36,946 nt of DNA from a virus (IMGVR_UViG_2718218132_000001); one strand, 5' to 3'. Shown: positions 21,805 through 30,787, counted from the first letter of the stretch. Numbers and translations are program-made. Notes: generated by a model from the letters alone, not told the origin.

Positions 21805-23571
21805 ATGAACACCACACTGACACCCGCAGATCTCGATCCCCGTCGGCAGGCCATGCTGCTGTACTTTCAGGGATACCGCGTAGCCCGCATTGCTGAAATG
21901 CTGGGCGAGAAAGTTGCAACCGTTCACAGCTGGAAAAAACGCGACAAGTGGGGTGACTATGGGCCGCTGGATCAGATGCAGCTCACCACCGCCGCACGTT
22001 ACTGCCAGCTCATTATGAAGGAGCACAAAGAAGGGAAAGATTTCAAAGAAATTGATCTGCTGGCGCGCCAGTCGGAGCGCCACGCGCGGATCGGCAAGTT
22101 TAACAATGGCGGCAACGAAGCCGATTTAAACCCTAACGTCGCCAACCGCAACAAAGGCCTGCGCCGTCAGCCTGAAAAGAATGTTTTCACCGATGAACAG
22201 ATTGAGAAGCTGGAAGAAATCTTCCATTCCTCCATGTTCAACTACCAGCGTCACTGGTGGGAAGCCGGAAAAACTAACCGCATCCGCAACCTGCTGAAGT
22301 CACGCCAGATCGGCGCGACCTTCTATTTTGCCCGTGAAGCCCTGATTGACGCCCTGCTAACCGGACGTAACCAGATTTTCCTTTCTGCCAGTAAGGCACA
22401 GGCGCACGTCTTTAAGCAGTACATCATCGACTTCGCCAAAGAAGTGGAAGTGGAGCTGAAAGGCGATCCGATGGTGCTTCCCAACGGGGCCACACTGTAT
22501 TTCCTCGGCACCAATGCCCGCACTGCCCAGAGTTACCACGGCAACCTGTATCTGGATGAATATTTCTGGATACCGAAATTCCAGGAGCTGCGCAAAGTGG
22601 CTTCCGGTATGGCTATTCACAAAAAATGGCGACAAACCTATTTTTCCACGCCATCCAGCCTGACCCACAGTGCTTATCCGTTCTGGTCCGGTGCGCTGTT
22701 CAACCGTGGACGCAACAAAGCCGACAAGGTGGACATCGACCTGTCCCACAGCAATCTGGCCCCCGGCCTGCTGTGCGCAGACGGGCAATACCGCCAGATA
22801 GTCACCGTAGAAGATGCGGTGCGCGGCGGCTGTAACCTGTTCGACCTTGACCAGTTGCGCATGGAATACAGCCCGGACGAATACCAGAACCTGCTGATGT
22901 GTGAGTTCGTGGACGATCTCGCGTCCGTGTTCCCGCTCAGCGAGCTGCAGGCGTGCATGGTGGACAGTTGGGAAGTCTGGACCGACTTTCATGCACTGGC
23001 CCTGCGCCCGTTTGGCTGGCGCGAAGTGTGGATCGGTTATGACCCGGCAAAAGGTACGCAGAACGGCGACAGCGCCGGATGCGTGGTGGTGGCACCGCCA
23101 GCCGTGCCGGGCGGTAAGTTCCGCATTCTTGAGCGTCACCAGTGGCGCGGAATGGACTTCCGCGCCCAGGCTGACGCCATCAAAAAACTGACCGAACAGT
23201 ATAACGTGACCTATATCGGCATCGACTCGACCGGCGTCGGTCACGGGGTTTACGAGAACGTGAAAGCGTTTTTTCCTGCCGTCCGGGAGTTTGTCTACAA
23301 CCCCAACGTTAAAAACGCCCTGGTACTCAAGGCCTACGACATTATCAGTCACCGCCGCCTGGAATTTGACGCCGGACACACCGACATTGCGCAGTCATTC
23401 ATGGCAATCCGTCGCGCCACCACCGCCAGCGGCAACCGCCCGACCTATGAAGCCAGCCGCAGCGAAGAAGCCAGCCATGCCGATCTGGCCTGGGCAACAA
23501 TGCACGCACTGTTTAACGAACCGCTGCAGGGCGAGTCCGCCAATGCCAGCAATATTGTGGAGATTTTTTGA
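21805..23571 (+). CDS. P: Terminase ATPase/large subunit (gpP)
   Basis: 588-aa ORF; P2 gpP family; divergent from O and overlapping the Q start. Confidence 0.9.
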   Translation: MNTTLTPADLDPRRQAMLLYFQGYRVARIAEMLGEKVATVHSWKKRDKWGDYGPLDQMQLTTAARYCQLIMKEHKEGKDFKEIDLLARQSERHARIGKFNNGGNEADLNPNVANRNKGLRRQPEKNVFTDEQIEKLEEIFHSSMFNYQRHWWEAGKTNRIRNLLKSRQIGATFYFAREALIDALLTGRNQIFLSASKAQAHVFKQYIIDFAKEVEVELKGDPMVLPNGATLYFLGTNARTAQSYHGNLYLDEYFWIPKFQELRKVASGMAIHKKWRQTYFSTPSSLTHSAYPFWSGALFNRGRNKADKVDIDLSHSNLAPGLLCADGQYRQIVTVEDAVRGGCNLFDLDQLRMEYSPDEYQNLLMCEFVDDLASVFPLSELQACMVDSWEVWTDFHALALRPFGWREVWIGYDPAKGTQNGDSAGCVVVAPPAVPGGKFRILERHQWRGMDFRAQADAIKKLTEQYNVTYIGIDSTGVGHGVYENVKAFFPAVREFVYNPNVKNALVLKAYDIISHRRLEFDAGHTDIAQSFMAIRRATTASGNRPTYEASRSEEASHADLAWATMHALFNEPLQGESANASNIVEIF

Positions 23572-24602
23572 TGGGAAAGAGTAAGAAGAACCGCGCTGCG
23601 TCGACGAACCAGAACCAGCATAAAAGCCAGACTTCAGCCGAAGCATTCAGCTTCGGTGATCCCGTTCCTGTTCTGGACCGCCGCGAACTGCTGGACTATG
23701 TGGAATGCGTACAGATGGATCGCTGGTATGAGCCGCCCGTCAGCTTTGACGGACTGGCACGAACCTTCCGCGCCGCCGTGCATCACAGCTCACCGATTGC
23801 GGTGAAATGCAACATTTTGACCAGCACCTACATCCCTCACCCGCTGCTCAGCCAGCAGGCTTTTTCGCGTTTTGTGCAGGACTATCTGGTTTTTGGTAAC
23901 GCCTACCTGGAGAAACGCACGAACCGCTTCGGTGAAGTTATCGCCCTTGAGCCTGCGCTGGCAAAATACACCCGACGCGGGTTAGACCTAGATACCTACT
24001 GGTTTGTGCAATACGGTATGACAACCCAGCCATATCAGTTCACGAAAGGCAGCATTTTTCATCTGATGGAACCGGACATTAACCAGGAGATCTACGGCTT
24101 GCCCGGCTATCTTTCTGCCATTCCGTCCGCCCTGCTCAATGAGTCCGCCACGCTGTTCCGTCGAAAGTATTACATTAACGGCAGTCATGCTGGCTTCATC
24201 ATGTATATGACCGACGCCGCGCAGAACCAGGAAGATGTGAACAACCTCCGCAACGCGATGAAAAGCGCCAAAGGTCCAGGCAACTTCCGCAACCTGTTTA
24301 TGTACTCGCCTAACGGCAAAAAGGACGGGCTTCAGATCATCCCGCTGTCAGAAGTCGCAGCGAAGGATGAATTTCTGAACATCAAGAACGTGAGCCGGGA
24401 CGACATGATGGCGGCACACCGTGTGCCACCGCAAATGATGGGGATTATGCCGAGCAATGTAGGTGGGTTTGGAGATGTGGAGAAGGCCAGTCTGGTATTT
24501 GTACGTAATGAATTAATTTATCTACAAGGGCGATTAAAAGAAGTTAATTCTTGGGTGGGCGAAAAAATTATTTCATTCACCCAATACACTTTAGATAATT
24601 AA
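23568..24602 (+). CDS. Q: Portal protein (gpQ)
   Basis: 344-aa ORF, same length as P2 gpQ; downstream of P. Confidence 0.9.
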   Translation: MMGKSKKNRAASTNQNQHKSQTSAEAFSFGDPVPVLDRRELLDYVECVQMDRWYEPPVSFDGLARTFRAAVHHSSPIAVKCNILTSTYIPHPLLSQQAFSRFVQDYLVFGNAYLEKRTNRFGEVIALEPALAKYTRRGLDLDTYWFVQYGMTTQPYQFTKGSIFHLMEPDINQEIYGLPGYLSAIPSALLNESATLFRRKYYINGSHAGFIMYMTDAAQNQEDVNNLRNAMKSAKGPGNFRNLFMYSPNGKKDGLQIIPLSEVAAKDEFLNIKNVSRDDMMAAHRVPPQMMGIMPSNVGGFGDVEKASLVFVRNELIYLQGRLKEVNSWVGEKIISFTQYTLDN

Positions 24603-24653
24603 ATAACAATAAACCCGGTAAACCTTAAACATTGAAAAAGTGTTTGAGGTTAT

Positions 24654-24968
24654 TTAGTTTCTATAATTAGAAATATAGTCATCCATTTTAGCCTGCTCTA
24701 TGATTCCACTATTTTTAATATACAAAACATTTGCCCAATCAAAATACTCACAAAGAATAACAATCATAGTCAAAAGCTTTTCATCAGTCATATTTATTAA
24801 CAGCTCATATTGTTCAGCTTTTTTTTCACTTTCAACTTTATCATCTATCAACTTCACCAAAAGATAAAATCTTCTTACCAAAGAGAAAAAATGATCATCA
24901 ACATCTAAACTTTCCAACCATGCAATGATTCTTTTCTTTTCTATTCCAGCTCTAACCAAGATGCTCAA
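24654..24968 (-). CDS. Hypothetical protein; probable C-terminal part of the upstream membrane protein, split by a frameshift at a G8 tract
   Basis: Starts only with TTG; its frame is open upstream to 25040 and a 1-nt change in the G8 tract (25032..25039) joins it to ORF 24986..25399. Confidence 0.45.
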   Translation of the reverse strand: MSILVRAGIEKKRIIAWLESLDVDDHFFSLVRRFYLLVKLIDDKVESEKKAEQYELLINMTDEKLLTMIVILCEYFDWANVLYIKNSGIIEQAKMDDYISNYRN

Positions 24969-24985
24969 GTTATCATCAATGAAAG

Positions 24986-25399
24986 TTATAGCATTATTAG
25001 ATCTATACTCAATAAGTGTAGGTTCTTTGGTCCCCCCCCTTTACTTTCATCATCATTATCTGCTCCATTACCGATTACAATACGCAATTTATTATAATTA
25101 GAATCTTGAGATTCAATTAGACAGAAAAACCTCACTTCAAATTTTTTGTAATCTTCAAGTAACTCTTGTCTTTTTATCTCTTGTTTCAATGTTGAGTTAG
25201 ACTGCACTTGTAAAGTTACAGAGCGAATCAGCAGGCAAATCGAGATAAAACTTAGTATAGGATTCAGGACCCCACCCATGAAGTCCCCAAATTGCCCCCA
25301 AACATCAGCATCTTGAGTACTTAAGTACCAGGGGCCAAACTTAATACAATAAACCCCCAAAACTATTATTATAAGAGCTAAACAAATTATTTTTAACAT
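24986..25399 (-). CDS. Hypothetical membrane protein (two N-terminal TM helices); N-terminal part of a probably frameshifted roughly 250-aa gene
   Basis: ATG lies 1 nt after the stop of the upstream gene; hydrophobic N-terminus; low GC; ends shortly after the G8 tract. Confidence 0.55.
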   Translation of the reverse strand: MLKIICLALIIIVLGVYCIKFGPWYLSTQDADVWGQFGDFMGGVLNPILSFISICLLIRSVTLQVQSNSTLKQEIKRQELLEDYKKFEVRFFCLIESQDSNYNKLRIVIGNGADNDDESKGGGPKNLHLLSIDLIML

Positions 25400-25400
25400 C

Positions 25401-26219
25401 TTACTGCACCGTATGCACTAAATATTTCACAGTTTCCCCACTGTTAATTATTACCCGACTTACAGTCAGTTCAAGATAAATATAACCAGCAGTGGAAGGC
25501 GGATTATTTACATGTAAGTTAGCCGAAATCATTCTTTTTTGAGCTGGAATGATGACACGTAAGGGGCTATAAAACCCAAATGCCACCGTATCATTTTCGC
25601 CCTCAAGAACAAGCCTACCATTGCCAGTGCGAGCATTAAATCTTGTAATATAAGCCCTGATTACTTCAGTCTTTTTTAAAACACGTGATGTGAATAAATT
25701 TGTTGCAGTAGATGTATCTAATTCAATTACTTTTTTCTTATCATGGGCACGCTGTTTAAAATTTAACTCGATATTATAGTTTTTTTTGAGGTTAATTTCA
25801 TGCATTCTTTTTAGAGGAGCTCGAATACGACCTATCAACTCATCCTCAATATCCGATAAACCTTTAACTACTTCTTCCGCTTCATTGGAAAGTTCGCGAC
25901 TCTCTAAATATAATGATTGCGAAATAAAGAAACTCATCACTTCATTAAATACTGGTTTAGATATTTTGCGAAGTTCTGATACCAGTTCAGCATCATTAAT
26001 AACCAAGTCAAAATTTTGACCATAAGAACCGGTGAAATTCCTCTTGAGTACAGCCCTTGCAGGATTTACATGAGAGCGGCGCTTTATTATTACTTTCCTA
26101 AGTATAGCCTCCGCCAACAAGCAAGTAACCTCTGCAGTTCCTGCAAGCGTGTCGAGACCGTATTCCATATCTACTTCATCATCGCCGCTTTTGATAATAA
26201 CATCGTAATTAACTCGCAT
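25401..26219 (-). CDS. Hypothetical protein (272 aa), first gene of an AT-rich cargo operon between portal Q and cos
   Basis: AAGGAAAG RBS 5 nt before the ATG; candidate -35 TTGACT upstream; no family recognised by eye. Confidence 0.6.
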   Translation of the reverse strand: MRVNYDVIIKSGDDEVDMEYGLDTLAGTAEVTCLLAEAILRKVIIKRRSHVNPARAVLKRNFTGSYGQNFDLVINDAELVSELRKISKPVFNEVMSFFISQSLYLESRELSNEAEEVVKGLSDIEDELIGRIRAPLKRMHEINLKKNYNIELNFKQRAHDKKKVIELDTSTATNLFTSRVLKKTEVIRAYITRFNARTGNGRLVLEGENDTVAFGFYSPLRVIIPAQKRMISANLHVNNPPSTAGYIYLELTVSRVIINSGETVKYLVHTVQ

Positions 26220-26284: not shown

Positions 26285-26323
26285 TGTTTTTGAACAGCAT
26301 AATCCTAAAAGCGGTAGCGCGCG

Positions 26324-26342
26324 CTCGTATCCCCGCCACGCC
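26324..26342 (-). other. Candidate cos site (cohesive-end region)
   Basis: Minus-strand GGCGTGGCGGGGATACGAG resembles the 19-nt cohesive ends of 186 and P2 as I recall them (first 13 nt match my recollection of 186). Confidence 0.4.
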
Positions 26343-26458
26343 TGCCCGCTTTATGTAGTAGTTTTCATGCAGGTGCATGATCTACGCGAAAGCCCGCCAA
26401 TTCTGGCGGCCCTAGCAAAAACGATCCTCAAACGATCATGCGATCTCATGCAGCATAG

Positions 26459-27301
26459 TCATGCACGATCATTTGACTCAGCATCTGCTGCACGCTTGCT
26501 GCGCGAAGATGCACTTTTACTATCAATCTTTCGACAGTTCTTTCTATCCCTGGCTTCATTTTCTTTAAATTTGTTATATGTCTCAGTATCAAAAAACGAA
26601 ATTGTTTCAACCTCATCTTTTGGTATGAGCACACGGAAATCTTCGATATTAAGCCGAGACATTCCACTTATCACACCACTATCAAGATAATGTTGGTGAT
26701 AGTTAGTCGTGATACTAATCGTTAGATCATCTTTATCCCGATATCCGCTTAACATCGGGAGAAGTTCAAGGTGCTCTGAAAGCCCGTTTTCTAACGCCGG
26801 ACAAGTAACAAGACCAACATAGATTTTGCGAGACGACAGAGTTGCTATGATCGGAAACTGTCTTGCGGACGCTTCCATGAGTAATGATTCGAAAGCGTTA
26901 TTACCCACAGCTTTAGCTAAGGCATCCCAGCGACGATCTCCACGTGATGTGCGTAACTTATTTCCAAAACCTGAAATCGCAGCGAGGACAATTGAAATCA
27001 TAACCCATGCTATCTGTTTGATTTCATTTATTCTTTGAAGTTTGTCTTTCGATGAAGACAACATGCCATTAAAACTGTCAGGTGTTAGATTCAAGGCATT
27101 AGCCAGCCAACGAAACCCTCCGCTGACGTTCAAAATAAAGGTGAAAAAACCGCCAAGGAGAAAAAAAACGATACCCCAGGCAGCCACAAAAAAATAAGCG
27201 TCCCAGCCGTTGGAACGCTTATATCGGTATCTTGTTGAAAGTGATAGGTTTACATAAATAAAACCACTAACCAAAATCACTGCTAAAAGTAATGTTGCCA
27301 T
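26459..27301 (-). CDS. Hypothetical polytopic membrane protein (280 aa) with a soluble C-terminal domain
   Basis: Three to four N-terminal hydrophobic helices; translationally coupled (TAATG) to the upstream 71-aa ORF; AT-rich. Confidence 0.6.
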   Translation of the reverse strand: MATLLLAVILVSGFIYVNLSLSTRYRYKRSNGWDAYFFVAAWGIVFFLLGGFFTFILNVSGGFRWLANALNLTPDSFNGMLSSSKDKLQRINEIKQIAWVMISIVLAAISGFGNKLRTSRGDRRWDALAKAVGNNAFESLLMEASARQFPIIATLSSRKIYVGLVTCPALENGLSEHLELLPMLSGYRDKDDLTISITTNYHQHYLDSGVISGMSRLNIEDFRVLIPKDEVETISFFDTETYNKFKENEARDRKNCRKIDSKSASSRSKRAADAESNDRA

Positions 27302-27516
27302 TATCTGGTTCTATTAGTTTTCTCTTTTACAGTGCTCGTTTTGATGCCTTCAAGCTTATCCATCTGTGCCTTGATGGCATCCATTGCTCTTTTGTTAGAC
27401 AAGTCTACGGACACAAAACCATCTTTACTAAGATTGAGTTTGTCCTGGTTCTCTTTAAGAACCCTTGCCAGACGTTCAACTGGGTTACCCAGGCTAAATG
27501 CGGCGATGCTTGACAT
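27301..27516 (-). CDS. Hypothetical small protein (71 aa), first gene of cargo operon 2
   Basis: ORF whose stop overlaps the start of the membrane-protein gene; basic C-terminus; no family recognised. Confidence 0.5.
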   Translation of the reverse strand: MSSIAAFSLGNPVERLARVLKENQDKLNLSKDGFVSVDLSNKRAMDAIKAQMDKLEGIKTSTVKEKTNRTR

Positions 27517-27786: not shown

Positions 27787-28020
27787 TTAATGCAGCCAGC
27801 TGTCGTCTTCCCACACCTTCTGCATAATTTTCATCACTTGTTTTCTTTCTTCGTCCAGTTGCAATCCGGTCAGTTCCACACCGTTAGAGCTACCTTTGCG
27901 GATACGAATTACCGTTTTGGGATACAGAGGACGCAGATTGCGGTAAAGCTCGGATTCAAGGGCGTCCAGGGTAGACTGGCTAATCTTCTGCTCTTTATCG
28001 ATCATTATTTCAATGCGCAT
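27787..28020 (-). CDS. DinI-family protein
   Basis: 77 aa; MRIEIMIDKEQKIS...ALESELYRNL...MKIMQKVWEDDSWLH closely parallels E. coli DinI as I recall it. Confidence 0.8.
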   Translation of the reverse strand: MRIEIMIDKEQKISQSTLDALESELYRNLRPLYPKTVIRIRKGSSNGVELTGLQLDEERKQVMKIMQKVWEDDSWLH

Positions 28021-28031
28021 AAAAAGTCACC

Positions 28032-28220
28032 TCAACTGATGACATCCATTGAGCGGTTGTATTCGTGGGTTCTGATTTTTGCCATGAGTTCATCTGTTAG
28101 TTCAGAAACCCACTGCAAAGCCAGCCCCTTCTCTTCATCACTACACTCACTAGCCGCTACAAGCTTAAGAAAAAAATCAATGCGCTGGAGCTTCAAAGAC
28201 TCCAAAAAATAGTCCTGCAT
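28032..28220 (-). CDS. Hypothetical small protein at the position of the 186 tum antirepressor; LexA-controlled
   Basis: Strong RBS (AGGAGGAAAG), with a CTGT-N8-ACAG LexA box 44 nt upstream of the start codon. Confidence 0.5.
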   Translation of the reverse strand: MQDYFLESLKLQRIDFFLKLVAASECSDEEKGLALQWVSELTDELMAKIRTHEYNRSMDVIS

Positions 28221-28372: not shown

Positions 28373-30787
28373 TTAATACAGATCCCGCCACTTATCATCT
28401 TCCTGCAAACGCTGGTTCCGATAGAAGATACGCAGGCCTGCTCCTGACGGAATACTGCCACCGCGAAGGAGTAAATCGACCTCTTTCTCGCTGCCATCAA
28501 ATCCTCTGGACTTCAGTTCATAGACGAGCTGCTGTCGCTGATGATCTGTAATTCGCTGTTTGTAGTCTCTACGCCGTTTCGGTTTCACCAGGCGTAACCT
28601 TGCAGCCAGTTCCCGGCGCTCTTTTTTGCTCATACTGTGCAGGTAATCGTGCAACTCCTTGTCATCCATACAGGTAATGTCAGTTCTGGGATCCCCATCT
28701 GTTGATTTATCTTTCTCCTGTTGGTTCAAATTTTCAGCAAGGGGACAGTTATTGCCACGAGTCCAAGGGGCGCAAGCGCCCTGGTCGGCTGCCGCCTCCT
28801 GAACATCAACGGCCTTACGAACCATTTTCCACTTCACGGCATGAGTGCAGATCTTGCCCTCTGCAATAGGTGACCAGATGCCATAAATACGAATGCCGTG
28901 ATCGCCATAGGCGGTCGGCTCTTCGTTGATTTCATAAGCGGTTCTGATGAGGTGATATTTGCGGGGAACCAGTACGCCGCCCTGCTTCATGATGTAGGTG
29001 GCAAAACAACCAGCATCAGCAGCAGCCAGGATGGCATCAAGGCGTGGGTTATCCAGTACCGGCGCACCTGCTTTTTTGTCCCCCTGTTGCCTTGCCGCCT
29101 GACCAGCCAGCAATCGCAGTTCACGGTAAGCCTGACGCCCCGGAATGCCAAAGAAGCGGAATTGCTGAACACGATGCAGAGACGCCCAGGCATTAACGTA
29201 TTCAGCATTATCACGCAGGGATTTCCCCGTTTCCTTGCTGATCTCGCCAGCCAGACCACGCCCGTCAATGTTCTTACTGATGTATTTCGCGATGTAGCTT
29301 GTTGGCGTTCCTTTGCGCGGGTTAATCAACTCAGACTTAAAGCGCGGCCCAGTGTTATTGCCCAGCTCCTCGCGGTCTTCACGGATGGCAAACTTACGCA
29401 GTAATGCAGTGATGGCACGGCGGTCTTTTTTGCGCATGAAACACAACAGGTGCCAGTGAACTGTGCCGTCATGATGCGGCTCAGCCACCCGCACGCCATA
29501 CCAGCGCAACCCGGCTTTGTGCATCGCCTTACGAAATGCAGCAAACATGCCGACCAGATAATCGCTGCTTTGTCTTACCGTCGCGTTTGTCCAGGTCGGG
29601 TTTGGTCTGCCGTTATTGAGCGTGGAATGGAAACGTGACGGACAGGTGATGGTGTAGAAAACGGCGCAGTCACCGCGCATTTCCGCGATAAGCTCCAGAC
29701 CTTTAACACAGGCCATCATCTCATTGCGACGATGCGCCGGGTTGCTGCTGCTGGCGTTTACCACATCCTCCATGTCCAGCGTGTCGCCGTCTTCGTTCAC
29801 CAGTTCATGAGAACGGAAAAACTCCAGCGACTTACGGCGCTGCTCACGTTTATGCATCACGGCTTCATAGCTGACATAGGGAGATGCTTTTTTGCTGACC
29901 AGGCAGACAGCACGCAACTGCTCTTCCCGCCATTCGCAACGCATCTTCCATAATTTCCGATACCACCAGTCGGCGCACAACATACGCGCCAGCGAACCCG
30001 GAATGAGTTCATAGGGCACGGGTTTACGGCGGTTTCTTTTCCGACGGAGTTGCTCAAACGCAGGAGGGATTACATCCAGACGCAGGGTTTCCGCTGCCAC
30101 CTTTTCCCATGTCTTGCGGATTTCTTCTGGCTTAACGTCATCGGTGGCATACAAATCACCACAAGCTGCATCAAGGCACATGCTCATATGCGCGGCAACA
30201 AGGGTAGACAGGCGCTTCACCTGATCCTGACTCATTTCAGGCAGGATCAGCAGGCCGTCCAGCCCTTCATGGCTTGCCATAAAGCGAAAAGAAGTGGATA
30301 GCTGACTCTCGCGTACATGCTCCAGTCGTTCCAGACATGGCTTAATCGTCTCACGCAAATAGCGGGAATAAGCCTTTGGCCTGCCCAGGCTGCTGAAGTA
30401 TTCAATACGTTGCATCAGCGGCTTGCTGATATGGGAAGGCTGGGCGTTGACGTCCGCCAGAATGACCATATCCGGATTAAAACGCTGCTGCTCATGCGCC
30501 AGCTTTGCCCGACTAATGAGCTTATCCTGCTCGATTTCGCGCTGGACAGGATCACGGGATTCATTAAAGAAATAACGCTCCCAGACCTGATCACTCAGCG
30601 CCTCACGGCGCAGCTGTTCCTGCTCGTTATCGGCAGCGTACAGAGTGATCAGGTTTGAAAGCGCAGAAACCGGCGCAACTTCCGCCGGGTCCAGATAAGG
30701 GTTAATGGCCTTTTTCGGGCTGCTCCATGAGAATGCTGCTGCGACCTCGTTAAAGCCGCTGCAGTTGTTCATATCAGCATGGCTCAT
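28373..30787 (-). CDS. A: Replication initiation endonuclease (gpA, rolling-circle initiator)
   Basis: 804-aa ORF, P2 gpA family; position between the Dam gene and the tum-like region. Confidence 0.9.

Follow-up and report, generated by a model that had tools for sequence, protein, structure and literature searches.

What are the two AT-rich genes lodged between portal gene Q and cos in a P2-like prophage of E. coli, and what might they do for the lysogen that carries them? We addressed this question on a stretch of 36,946 nucleotides (IMGVR_UViG_2718218132_000001; the whole stretch analysed is hereafter called the window), whose sequence is found unchanged in E. coli EC590 (NZ_CP016182.2) and corresponds to a P2-like prophage. 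The gpA-cos-gpQ region of P2-like phages has been described as a defence hotspot (Rousset 2022, PMC9122126), and a preprint on the P2 and P4 hotspots (2026) reports that it holds many unrecognised systems. A first-pass annotation of the window had proposed that the two genes are accessory cargo of this kind and a candidate uncharacterised anti-phage system.

The terminase gene P (21805-23571, + strand) and the portal gene Q (23568-24602, +), which sets the left-hand limit of the cargo slot, are followed by two minus-strand cargo genes, then by a cos-like block, a second cargo encoding a 280-aa transmembrane (TM) protein and a 71-aa protein, a DinI-like gene, a 62-aa ORF and the replication gene gpA (28373-30787, minus strand). 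Hereafter called A and B, the two genes occupy positions 24654-26219. Gene A (25401-26219, minus strand) is an intact ORF of 272 aa, and a single base separates its stop codon from the start codon of gene B (24654-25399, minus strand). The latter encodes 248 aa when intact and is here frameshifted into ORFs of 137 aa (24986-25399) and 104 aa (24654-24968). The GC content of the operon (0.28-0.39) is far below that of P and Q (0.52-0.62). The tight coupling of the two genes, the foreign composition, and the split reading frame of a protein of roughly 250 aa had all been noticed at first pass and are confirmed here.

The presence of a cos-like site next to the operon was also borne out. The P2 cos junction aligns to positions 26316-26371 with 42 of 56 nucleotides identical, and its 19-nt cohesive end falls on the 19-mer GGCGTGGCGGGGATACGAG (26324-26342, minus strand). 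This sequence belongs to a conserved block of ~150 bp (26314-26466, minus strand) that forms the right-hand limit of the cargo and recurs in 1274 of 5426 complete E. coli genomes and in 85 phage records. In many P2-like phages, with alleles 31-89% identical, the start of A is located 95-115 nt from recognisable cos variants. The suggestion that the operon has its own promoter fared less well. A candidate upstream of A (TTGACT-N16-ATTAAT, 26284-26257, minus strand) can be read by eye; a sigma-70 consensus scan returned no site upstream of A, with regional matches at chance level (8 vs 7.8 expected), and the -35 hexamer is not kept in the closest allele (89% identical). Between the convergent stop codons of Q and B, an AT-rich hairpin (24621-24651) resembles a terminator, possibly bidirectional, at a position equivalent to that of the P2 tQ terminator. 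As one terminator-like site was found where 1.0 is expected by chance, the evidence for this terminator is weak.

The operon adjoins cos within the gpA-gpQ interval, in a Q-cos slot of ~1.7 kb compared with the 167 nt that separate cos from the Q stop codon in P2, which lacks the pair. Comparing this interval across P2-like prophages, as proposed at first pass, revealed alternative cargos, and the cargos on the Q side and on the gpA side have been exchanged independently among near-identical prophages. Both the window locus and a second E. coli allele are present in Table S5A of Rousset 2022 (PMC9122126), where they are entered only as 'hypothetical', and in other P2-like prophages of the same table a SieB-domain gene replaces A-B beside the same gpA-side cargo. 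With old and tin located on the gpA side of cos and A-B on the Q side, the latter represents a cargo slot distinct from the old/tin side. The content of this slot is highly variable: the window allele occurs in 5 and a 55%-identical allele in 4 of the 5426 complete E. coli genomes (9 in total), against 1274 genomes with the cos block. This restriction to 5 and 4 genomes rules out a core phage function and agrees with the accessory status first assigned to the pair, which is rare among P2-like prophages.

The pair is not bound to a single phage lineage or to one type of replicon. Approximately 25 of 34 viral loci are arranged as in the window (gpA, cos, A, B, convergent Q), and the pair was found in P2-like phages of several genera and in both orientations, including a Providencia prophage in which the cassette is inverted. 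In another phage, Klebsiella phage Kp4865-4, it forms an AT-rich island. The pair is also carried by IncX1 conjugative plasmids, next to DinQ-like type I toxins, and constitutes the main cargo of a 4.65-kb ColE1 plasmid. On an Acinetobacter plasmid it is flanked by RelE/ParE modules, on a mosaic IncF/IncX4 plasmid it lies 2 kb from an 'Abi family protein', and chromosomal islands of Pseudomonas and Chromobacterium carry it together with an integrase or with IS remnants. The neighbours of the non-phage loci are mostly unannotatable and uninformative. Three neighbouring proteins display a possible HEPN-like Rx4H motif, their sole database match being a weak one to DUF4145.

In all these contexts, A and B travel together. 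A is followed immediately by B in 11 of 11 curated loci and in all 33 IMG/VR viral contigs with sequence downstream of A (the set comprises 34 contigs, the last of which stops within A and was left uncounted), with junctions that abut or overlap by 4-14 nt. Across the 11 curated loci, pairwise identities of A and of B are strongly correlated (r = 0.92, a value reached in 0 of 5000 Mantel permutations), which indicates that the two proteins diverged together, down to ~27-30% identity. A and B are thus an obligate pair and form one two-gene unit. A more remote candidate was considered in Leptospira phage LE1, where gp06 has a B-like N-terminus and a protein with an A-like fold (Q6NE06) is encoded at some point of the genome. 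The gene beside gp06 has a product of only 99 aa, so LE1 offers no evidence of an A-B pair and this candidate was rejected.

Protein A is soluble, as first described: no hydrophobic segment was detected in it, the highest 19-residue Kyte-Doolittle mean being 1.28. Its family is small, with 229 representatives (E <= 1e-3) among 1.84 billion proteins, nearly all of ~270 aa. The AF2 model of A is confident (pLDDT 90) and predicts a C-terminal OB fold (residues ~179-272, DUF7947-like) preceded by an alpha/beta domain (~1-177, DUF7946-like) that found no match among solved structures; sequence searches of the PDB with profiles of A and B also returned nothing. Comparison with BFVD yielded weak cold-shock-domain matches together with three uncharacterised phage proteins. 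Invariant positions comprise a loop FxGSYGQxF, H140, R193, N195, T198, G201, R202, F214, F216, N234, N238 and K265. No catalytic motif is evident among them, and no cyclase, nuclease or other catalytic fold was recognised in A, in agreement with the initial reading. The parallel then drawn with signalling systems was not sustained, A combining an OB-fold domain and a structurally unmatched domain with no catalytic fold.

At first pass, no family had been recognised in either protein, a view that stands only as regards function. A belongs to PHROG 13337 and to the DUF7946/DUF7947 group (PF25678/PF25679) and B belongs to PHROG 8999 (E 1.8e-55), all of them of unknown function. The window A itself scores below the 27-bit gathering threshold of both Pfam families, with 16.1 bits for DUF7947 and no match to DUF7946, and 9 of 36 A homologues weakly match each of them. 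The profile of A relatives nevertheless grades into members that pass DUF7946 in their N-terminal part and DUF7947 in their C-terminal part. It reaches P0345 and P0340 (E ~1e-9), which score 141 and 113 bits against DUF7946, and 47.5 and 24 bits against DUF7947, the last value falling under the gathering score. A, P0345 and P0340 are all about 270-310 aa long and share the same two-domain order. Judging from this likeness in length, domain order and profile homology, A is a divergent DUF7946+DUF7947 protein. By contrast with A, more distant canonical members of these families are followed by a gene for a different soluble protein of 323 aa and not by B, a pattern that fits a constant sensor associated with exchangeable effectors.

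In agreement with the two N-terminal TM helices first proposed, protein B displays a pair of TM segments, at approximately residues 1-27 and 39-66, and the intact protein is organised as TM1, a conserved WGQFGDxxGGxxNPxLSF motif with TM2, a long helix, a variable loop and a helical C-terminal domain. The residues W34-G-Q-F-G-D39-x-x-G42-G43-x-x-N46-P47 are invariant at the start of TM2. In the AF2 model (pLDDT 83), TM2 runs into a helix of ~70 residues, followed by a hairpin with a disordered loop and by a helical bundle. When the positive-inside rule is applied to the alignment, both termini are predicted to be cytoplasmic (N-in, C-in) and an acidic loop to be exposed to the periplasm. Pfam identified zero domains in B, and no enzymatic domain was found.

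Over residues ~3-128, B shares homology with the N-terminal regions of proteins annotated by PGAP as 'putative phage abortive infection protein' and containing Pfam putAbiC (tblastn E 1e-9 to 1e-5, BLASTP 4e-17, hhalign probability 98.8%). The likeness to abortive infection systems sensed at first pass is thereby supported for the membrane component. A 2026 review (PMC13064643) portrays the AbiC of lactococci as another 2TM protein, whose helical domain is functionally uncharacterised, and places it with the nucleic-acid-binding AbiP. Like AbiC and the putAbiC proteins, B combines an N-terminal 2TM anchor and juxtamembrane motif with a long helix and an all-helical, presumably cytoplasmic, domain. 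B departs from this group in several respects. Pfam putAbiC (PF16872) sits in the C-terminal half of the 2TM homologues and gave no match in B or its homologues even at E up to 10, nor did PADLOC return an AbiC match. Furthermore, AbiC-type proteins are single-gene systems, whereas A precedes B in 44 of 44 loci. We also considered a putAbiC-like domain in the C-terminus of B, where motifs align by eye (FS-x-RRFY...KLID against MFRTLFRLIKWVD), yet a custom profile of the B C-terminus scored two putAbiC proteins at only 7 bits, the same as shuffled sequences, and this candidate domain is therefore retained only as a lead. Proteins of the putAbiC type are encoded on plasmids, within integron cassettes and amid defence genes. 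One of these 2TM proteins is encoded by a Vibrio integron cassette, and another lies beside JetA/JetB-like genes (DUF3375, DUF4194) and a HEPN gene. The recurrence of the 2TM module in such single-gene proteins suggests that this module is the output part of the system. AbiC was described over 30 years ago, and AbiC-type 2TM proteins have, to our knowledge, gone without a mechanistic explanation since then.

The disruption of B in the window can be traced to a single position. Set against the intact allele of E. coli Sx181-0-1 (248 aa), the window gene is disabled solely by the absence of one G from a homopolymer. The tract reads G8 in the window (25032-25039, minus strand; C8 on the + strand), G9A in 22F46 and OW968288, and G10 in Sx181-0-1 and 2017-03-3CC. 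Intact B alleles include WP_115207747 and WP_040075596, the latter forming with WP_040075599 the intact allele of E. coli 22F46. No other G/C run in the 36.9-kb window reaches 8 nucleotides. The tract falls in a loop of the B model (residues 112-125) that is variable and of low confidence, and the window protein is cut by a -1 frameshift past residue ~124. Because of this frameshift, the system is probably inactive in the window copy, barring a sequencing error in the G8 run. The poly-G tract may also act as an on/off switch of a costly system. Three disrupted copies were identified, all of them in B and none in A: besides the G-run frameshift of the window, OW968288 carries an inserted IS1 and CP042629 a frameshift from T8 to T7, at a position similar to that of the window frameshift. 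Across ~70 loci, A and B are both intact nearly everywhere. Because homopolymer frameshifts, which may be assembly errors, account for two of the three disruptions, and because intact copies of both genes prevail, the argument drawn from B-only disruption is weak.

A PADLOC (v2) run on the locus, one of the checks proposed at first pass, recognised no defence system, with no match for A and only a weak one for B to the TM region of ZorB3 (19.7 bits, B residues 28-80). PADLOC, Pfam, NCBIfam and PHROGs searches on all cargo ORFs returned only families of unknown function and weak matches to RamB, tRNA-synt_1d, IL10 and the ZorB3 TM region, which were judged spurious. In particular, a ZorB/MotB-like stator subunit of Zorya would have one TM carrying the conserved Asp, end in a peptidoglycan-binding domain and be paired with MotA/ZorA, a description that B does not fit. 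A is not ZorA-like since it has no PADLOC match, B has no Pfam domain, and its matched helix would run from outside to inside according to the positive-inside rule, opposite to that of MotB. We consequently rejected this candidate as a match of TM composition. Neither protein showed homology to phage structural or housekeeping proteins. We found no paper on DUF7946, DUF7947, the PHROG identifiers, the accessions or putAbiC and no report of a phage challenge for the pair, and the supplements of Vassallo 2022 and DefensePredictor 2026 contained nothing on it.

What do these features imply for function? The location in the hotspot, the foreign composition, the rarity, the linkage and co-divergence of the two genes, their spread across replicons and the Abi-type membrane module together give the pair, as read from sequence, the genomic signature of a module for conflict or defence, and a defence interpretation is plausible and better grounded than at first pass. 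Our preferred reading, to which we give an even chance, is that A and B constitute a mobile hotspot module for abortive infection or phage exclusion by the lysogen, with A as the sensor and B as the membrane effector. Under this model, A would stay in the cytoplasm, where its OB-fold domain may bind nucleic acid or protein derived from the phage. B would be anchored in the inner membrane in an N-in/C-in topology, with its helical domain on the cytoplasmic side. Upon infection, A would release or activate B, and the glycine- and proline-rich TM2 of B could then oligomerise, compromising the membrane and stopping phage production. This assignment of roles, which is indirect, is favoured by the constancy of the 2TM module in single-gene putAbiC proteins, by the other partners of canonical A relatives, and by the fact that all three disruptions affect B. 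A more specific version, that the pair represents a new anti-phage family in which a DUF7946/DUF7947 cold-shock-like OB fold detects phage nucleic acid or protein and directly gates an AbiC-type 2TM module, is put forward only tentatively, and we would not yet bet on it.

Other explanations account for part of the same observations. The pair might be a toxin-antitoxin or addiction module, with B as a membrane toxin and A as its protein antitoxin, that stabilises prophages and plasmids and contributes to defence only secondarily. Such a role would suit its position as main cargo of the small ColE1 plasmid, the DinQ-like toxins adjoining the IncX1 copies, the RelE/ParE modules around the Acinetobacter copy, the tight coupling of the genes and the occurrence of disruptions in B only. 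We nonetheless assign it a low probability, because A is large (272 aa) and without the DNA-binding folds usual in antitoxins, and because most carriers are P2-like prophages with the pair in a defence hotspot. The addiction and abortive infection roles are in any case compatible and not mutually exclusive. A similarly modest probability is given to a reversal of roles, resembling Kiwa or superinfection exclusion, in which B would be a membrane sensor or anchor at the site of DNA entry and A a nucleic-acid-binding effector, with no killing. The OB fold of A with its invariant basic residues (R193, R202, K265) and no catalytic motif, the lack of an enzymatic domain in B, the SieB-domain gene that stands in for A-B beside the same gpA-side cargo (Rousset Table S5A) and the nucleic-acid binding of AbiP in the AbiC/P group (PMC13064643) all point in this direction. 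Against it stand the absence of sequence matches to KwaA/KwaB or any other PADLOC model, the recurrence of the 2TM module in single-gene putAbiC proteins, which suggests an output part, and the preferential loss of B, unexpected for a mere sensor.

A benefit to the host unrelated to phages, by lysogenic conversion affecting for example the envelope or stress physiology, appears improbable to us. Morons can encode traits of many kinds and the pair has no known defence domain, but the hotspot site, the Abi-type 2TM module, the mobility and the toxin-antitoxin and Abi neighbourhoods point to conflict systems. Finally, the site beside cos and the portal gene, together with the conserved spacing of 95-115 nt between cos and the start of A in phages with divergent alleles, could evoke a core or packaging accessory function of the phage. 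This reading is nearly excluded and close to refuted, and we consider it very improbable: P2 does without the pair, having only 167 nt between cos and Q, either allele is carried by only 9 of 5426 E. coli genomes when 1274 have the cos block, the pair resides on plasmids and chromosomal islands without phage genes, and its base composition is foreign to the phage.

The RexA/RexB proteins of lambda are also a prophage-encoded pair associating a soluble protein of ~270-280 aa with an inner-membrane protein, as candidate sensor and membrane effector for excluding other phages, and neither A nor B proved homologous to them in sequence or structure. Kiwa similarly combines a membrane protein with a cytoplasmic protein possibly binding nucleic acid. 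Its KwaA component contains four TM helices, and KwaB belongs to DUF4868. A-B has no PADLOC match to Kiwa, and its roles are perhaps reversed relative to Kiwa if A is the sensor and B the effector. The validated systems of the P2 cos hotspot, among them old, tin, AC1 2TM+1TM+TIR and DprA+PRTase (Rousset 2022, PMC9122126), resemble A-B in their location, AT-richness and exchange between related prophages, and have no domains in common with it.

At present, the A-B pair is one of many candidates of this hotspot. If validated, it would represent a compact 1.6-kb defence family missed by PADLOC v2 and would provide the first function for DUF7946/DUF7947 and for PHROGs 13337 and 8999. It would in addition offer an experimental handle on the action of AbiC-type 2TM proteins and, should the gating model prove true, the first mechanism for the widespread AbiC/putAbiC membrane proteins.

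On the replication gene (gpA) side of cos, a second cargo pair occupies 26459-27516 on the minus strand and encodes a 71-aa protein (PHROG 9843) and a 280-aa protein (PHROG 3630) with about three TM segments, their genes overlapping by a single base. Neither protein had a match in Pfam or PADLOC, and the pair appears with a SieB gene in Table S5A of Rousset 2022 (PMC9122126). Comparison of related prophages revealed that this pair is exchanged independently of the A-B pair, i.e. the genes of the soluble protein (A) and of the two-TM membrane protein (B), the same slot holding WP_001059831 or a ComF-like gene with a hypothetical gene. The interval from gpA to this variable cargo contains a DinI-like gene (27787-28020, minus strand; Pfam DinI, E 6.6e-23) together with a conserved ORF of 62 aa (28032-28220; PHROG 698), and both keep this position in the related prophages examined.

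We found several variants of the cos 19-mer (GGCGTGGCGGGGATAGCAT, GGCGAGGCGGGGATAGCAC, GGCGTGGCGGGGAAAGCAT and GGCGTGGCGGGGATACGAG) 5' of the A-B cassette across the compared loci L034-L053 and L003, at a nearly constant distance upstream of A. Because the stretch from cos to the start of A shows no conservation between alleles, sequence comparison places the edge of the cassette ~10-15 bp away from cos.

The frameshift in B maps to a G8 tract (25032-25039), the sole G/C homopolymer of at least 8 nt in the 36.9-kb window, within a gene of 30% GC. Intact B alleles carry G9A or G10 at this position, and the G8 tract could serve as an on/off switch prone to slippage, or could stem from a recent mutation or from an error in the EC590 assembly. 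Besides the window copy, B has been disrupted independently in two other loci, both with A intact: an IncX-type allele (L029, CP042629.1 ~44765-45630) is frameshifted at about residue 129 through a T8 to T7 change, and a chromosomal allele (L013, OW968288.1) is interrupted by an IS1A insertion.

Downstream of the A-B pair or of distant A relatives, we also observed genes whose proteins carry Rx4H motifs (RNIHTH, RHMIVH and RNEFAH; L019 2257-3228, L007 7721-8569 and L010 8797-9264). These motifs are reminiscent of HEPN, a weak DUF4145 match being the sole backing for this resemblance.

The 2TM module of B is also present in single-gene putAbiC (PF16872) proteins, encoded in a Vibrio alginolyticus plasmid (L023, NZ_CP054704.1) by an integron-type cassette between DUF3265 ORFs, and in a Cupriavidus plasmid (L024, NZ_CP044066.1) by a gene whose neighbours include JetA/JetB-like genes (DUF3375/DUF4194) as well as a HEPN gene. 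In Leptospira phage LE1, gp06 (L030, NC_048892.1 4222-5028) bears a B-like N-terminal 2TM module; its upstream neighbour encodes 99 aa unlike A, and a separate LE1 protein, Q6NE06 (381 aa), matches A structurally (Foldseek E 1.7e-5).
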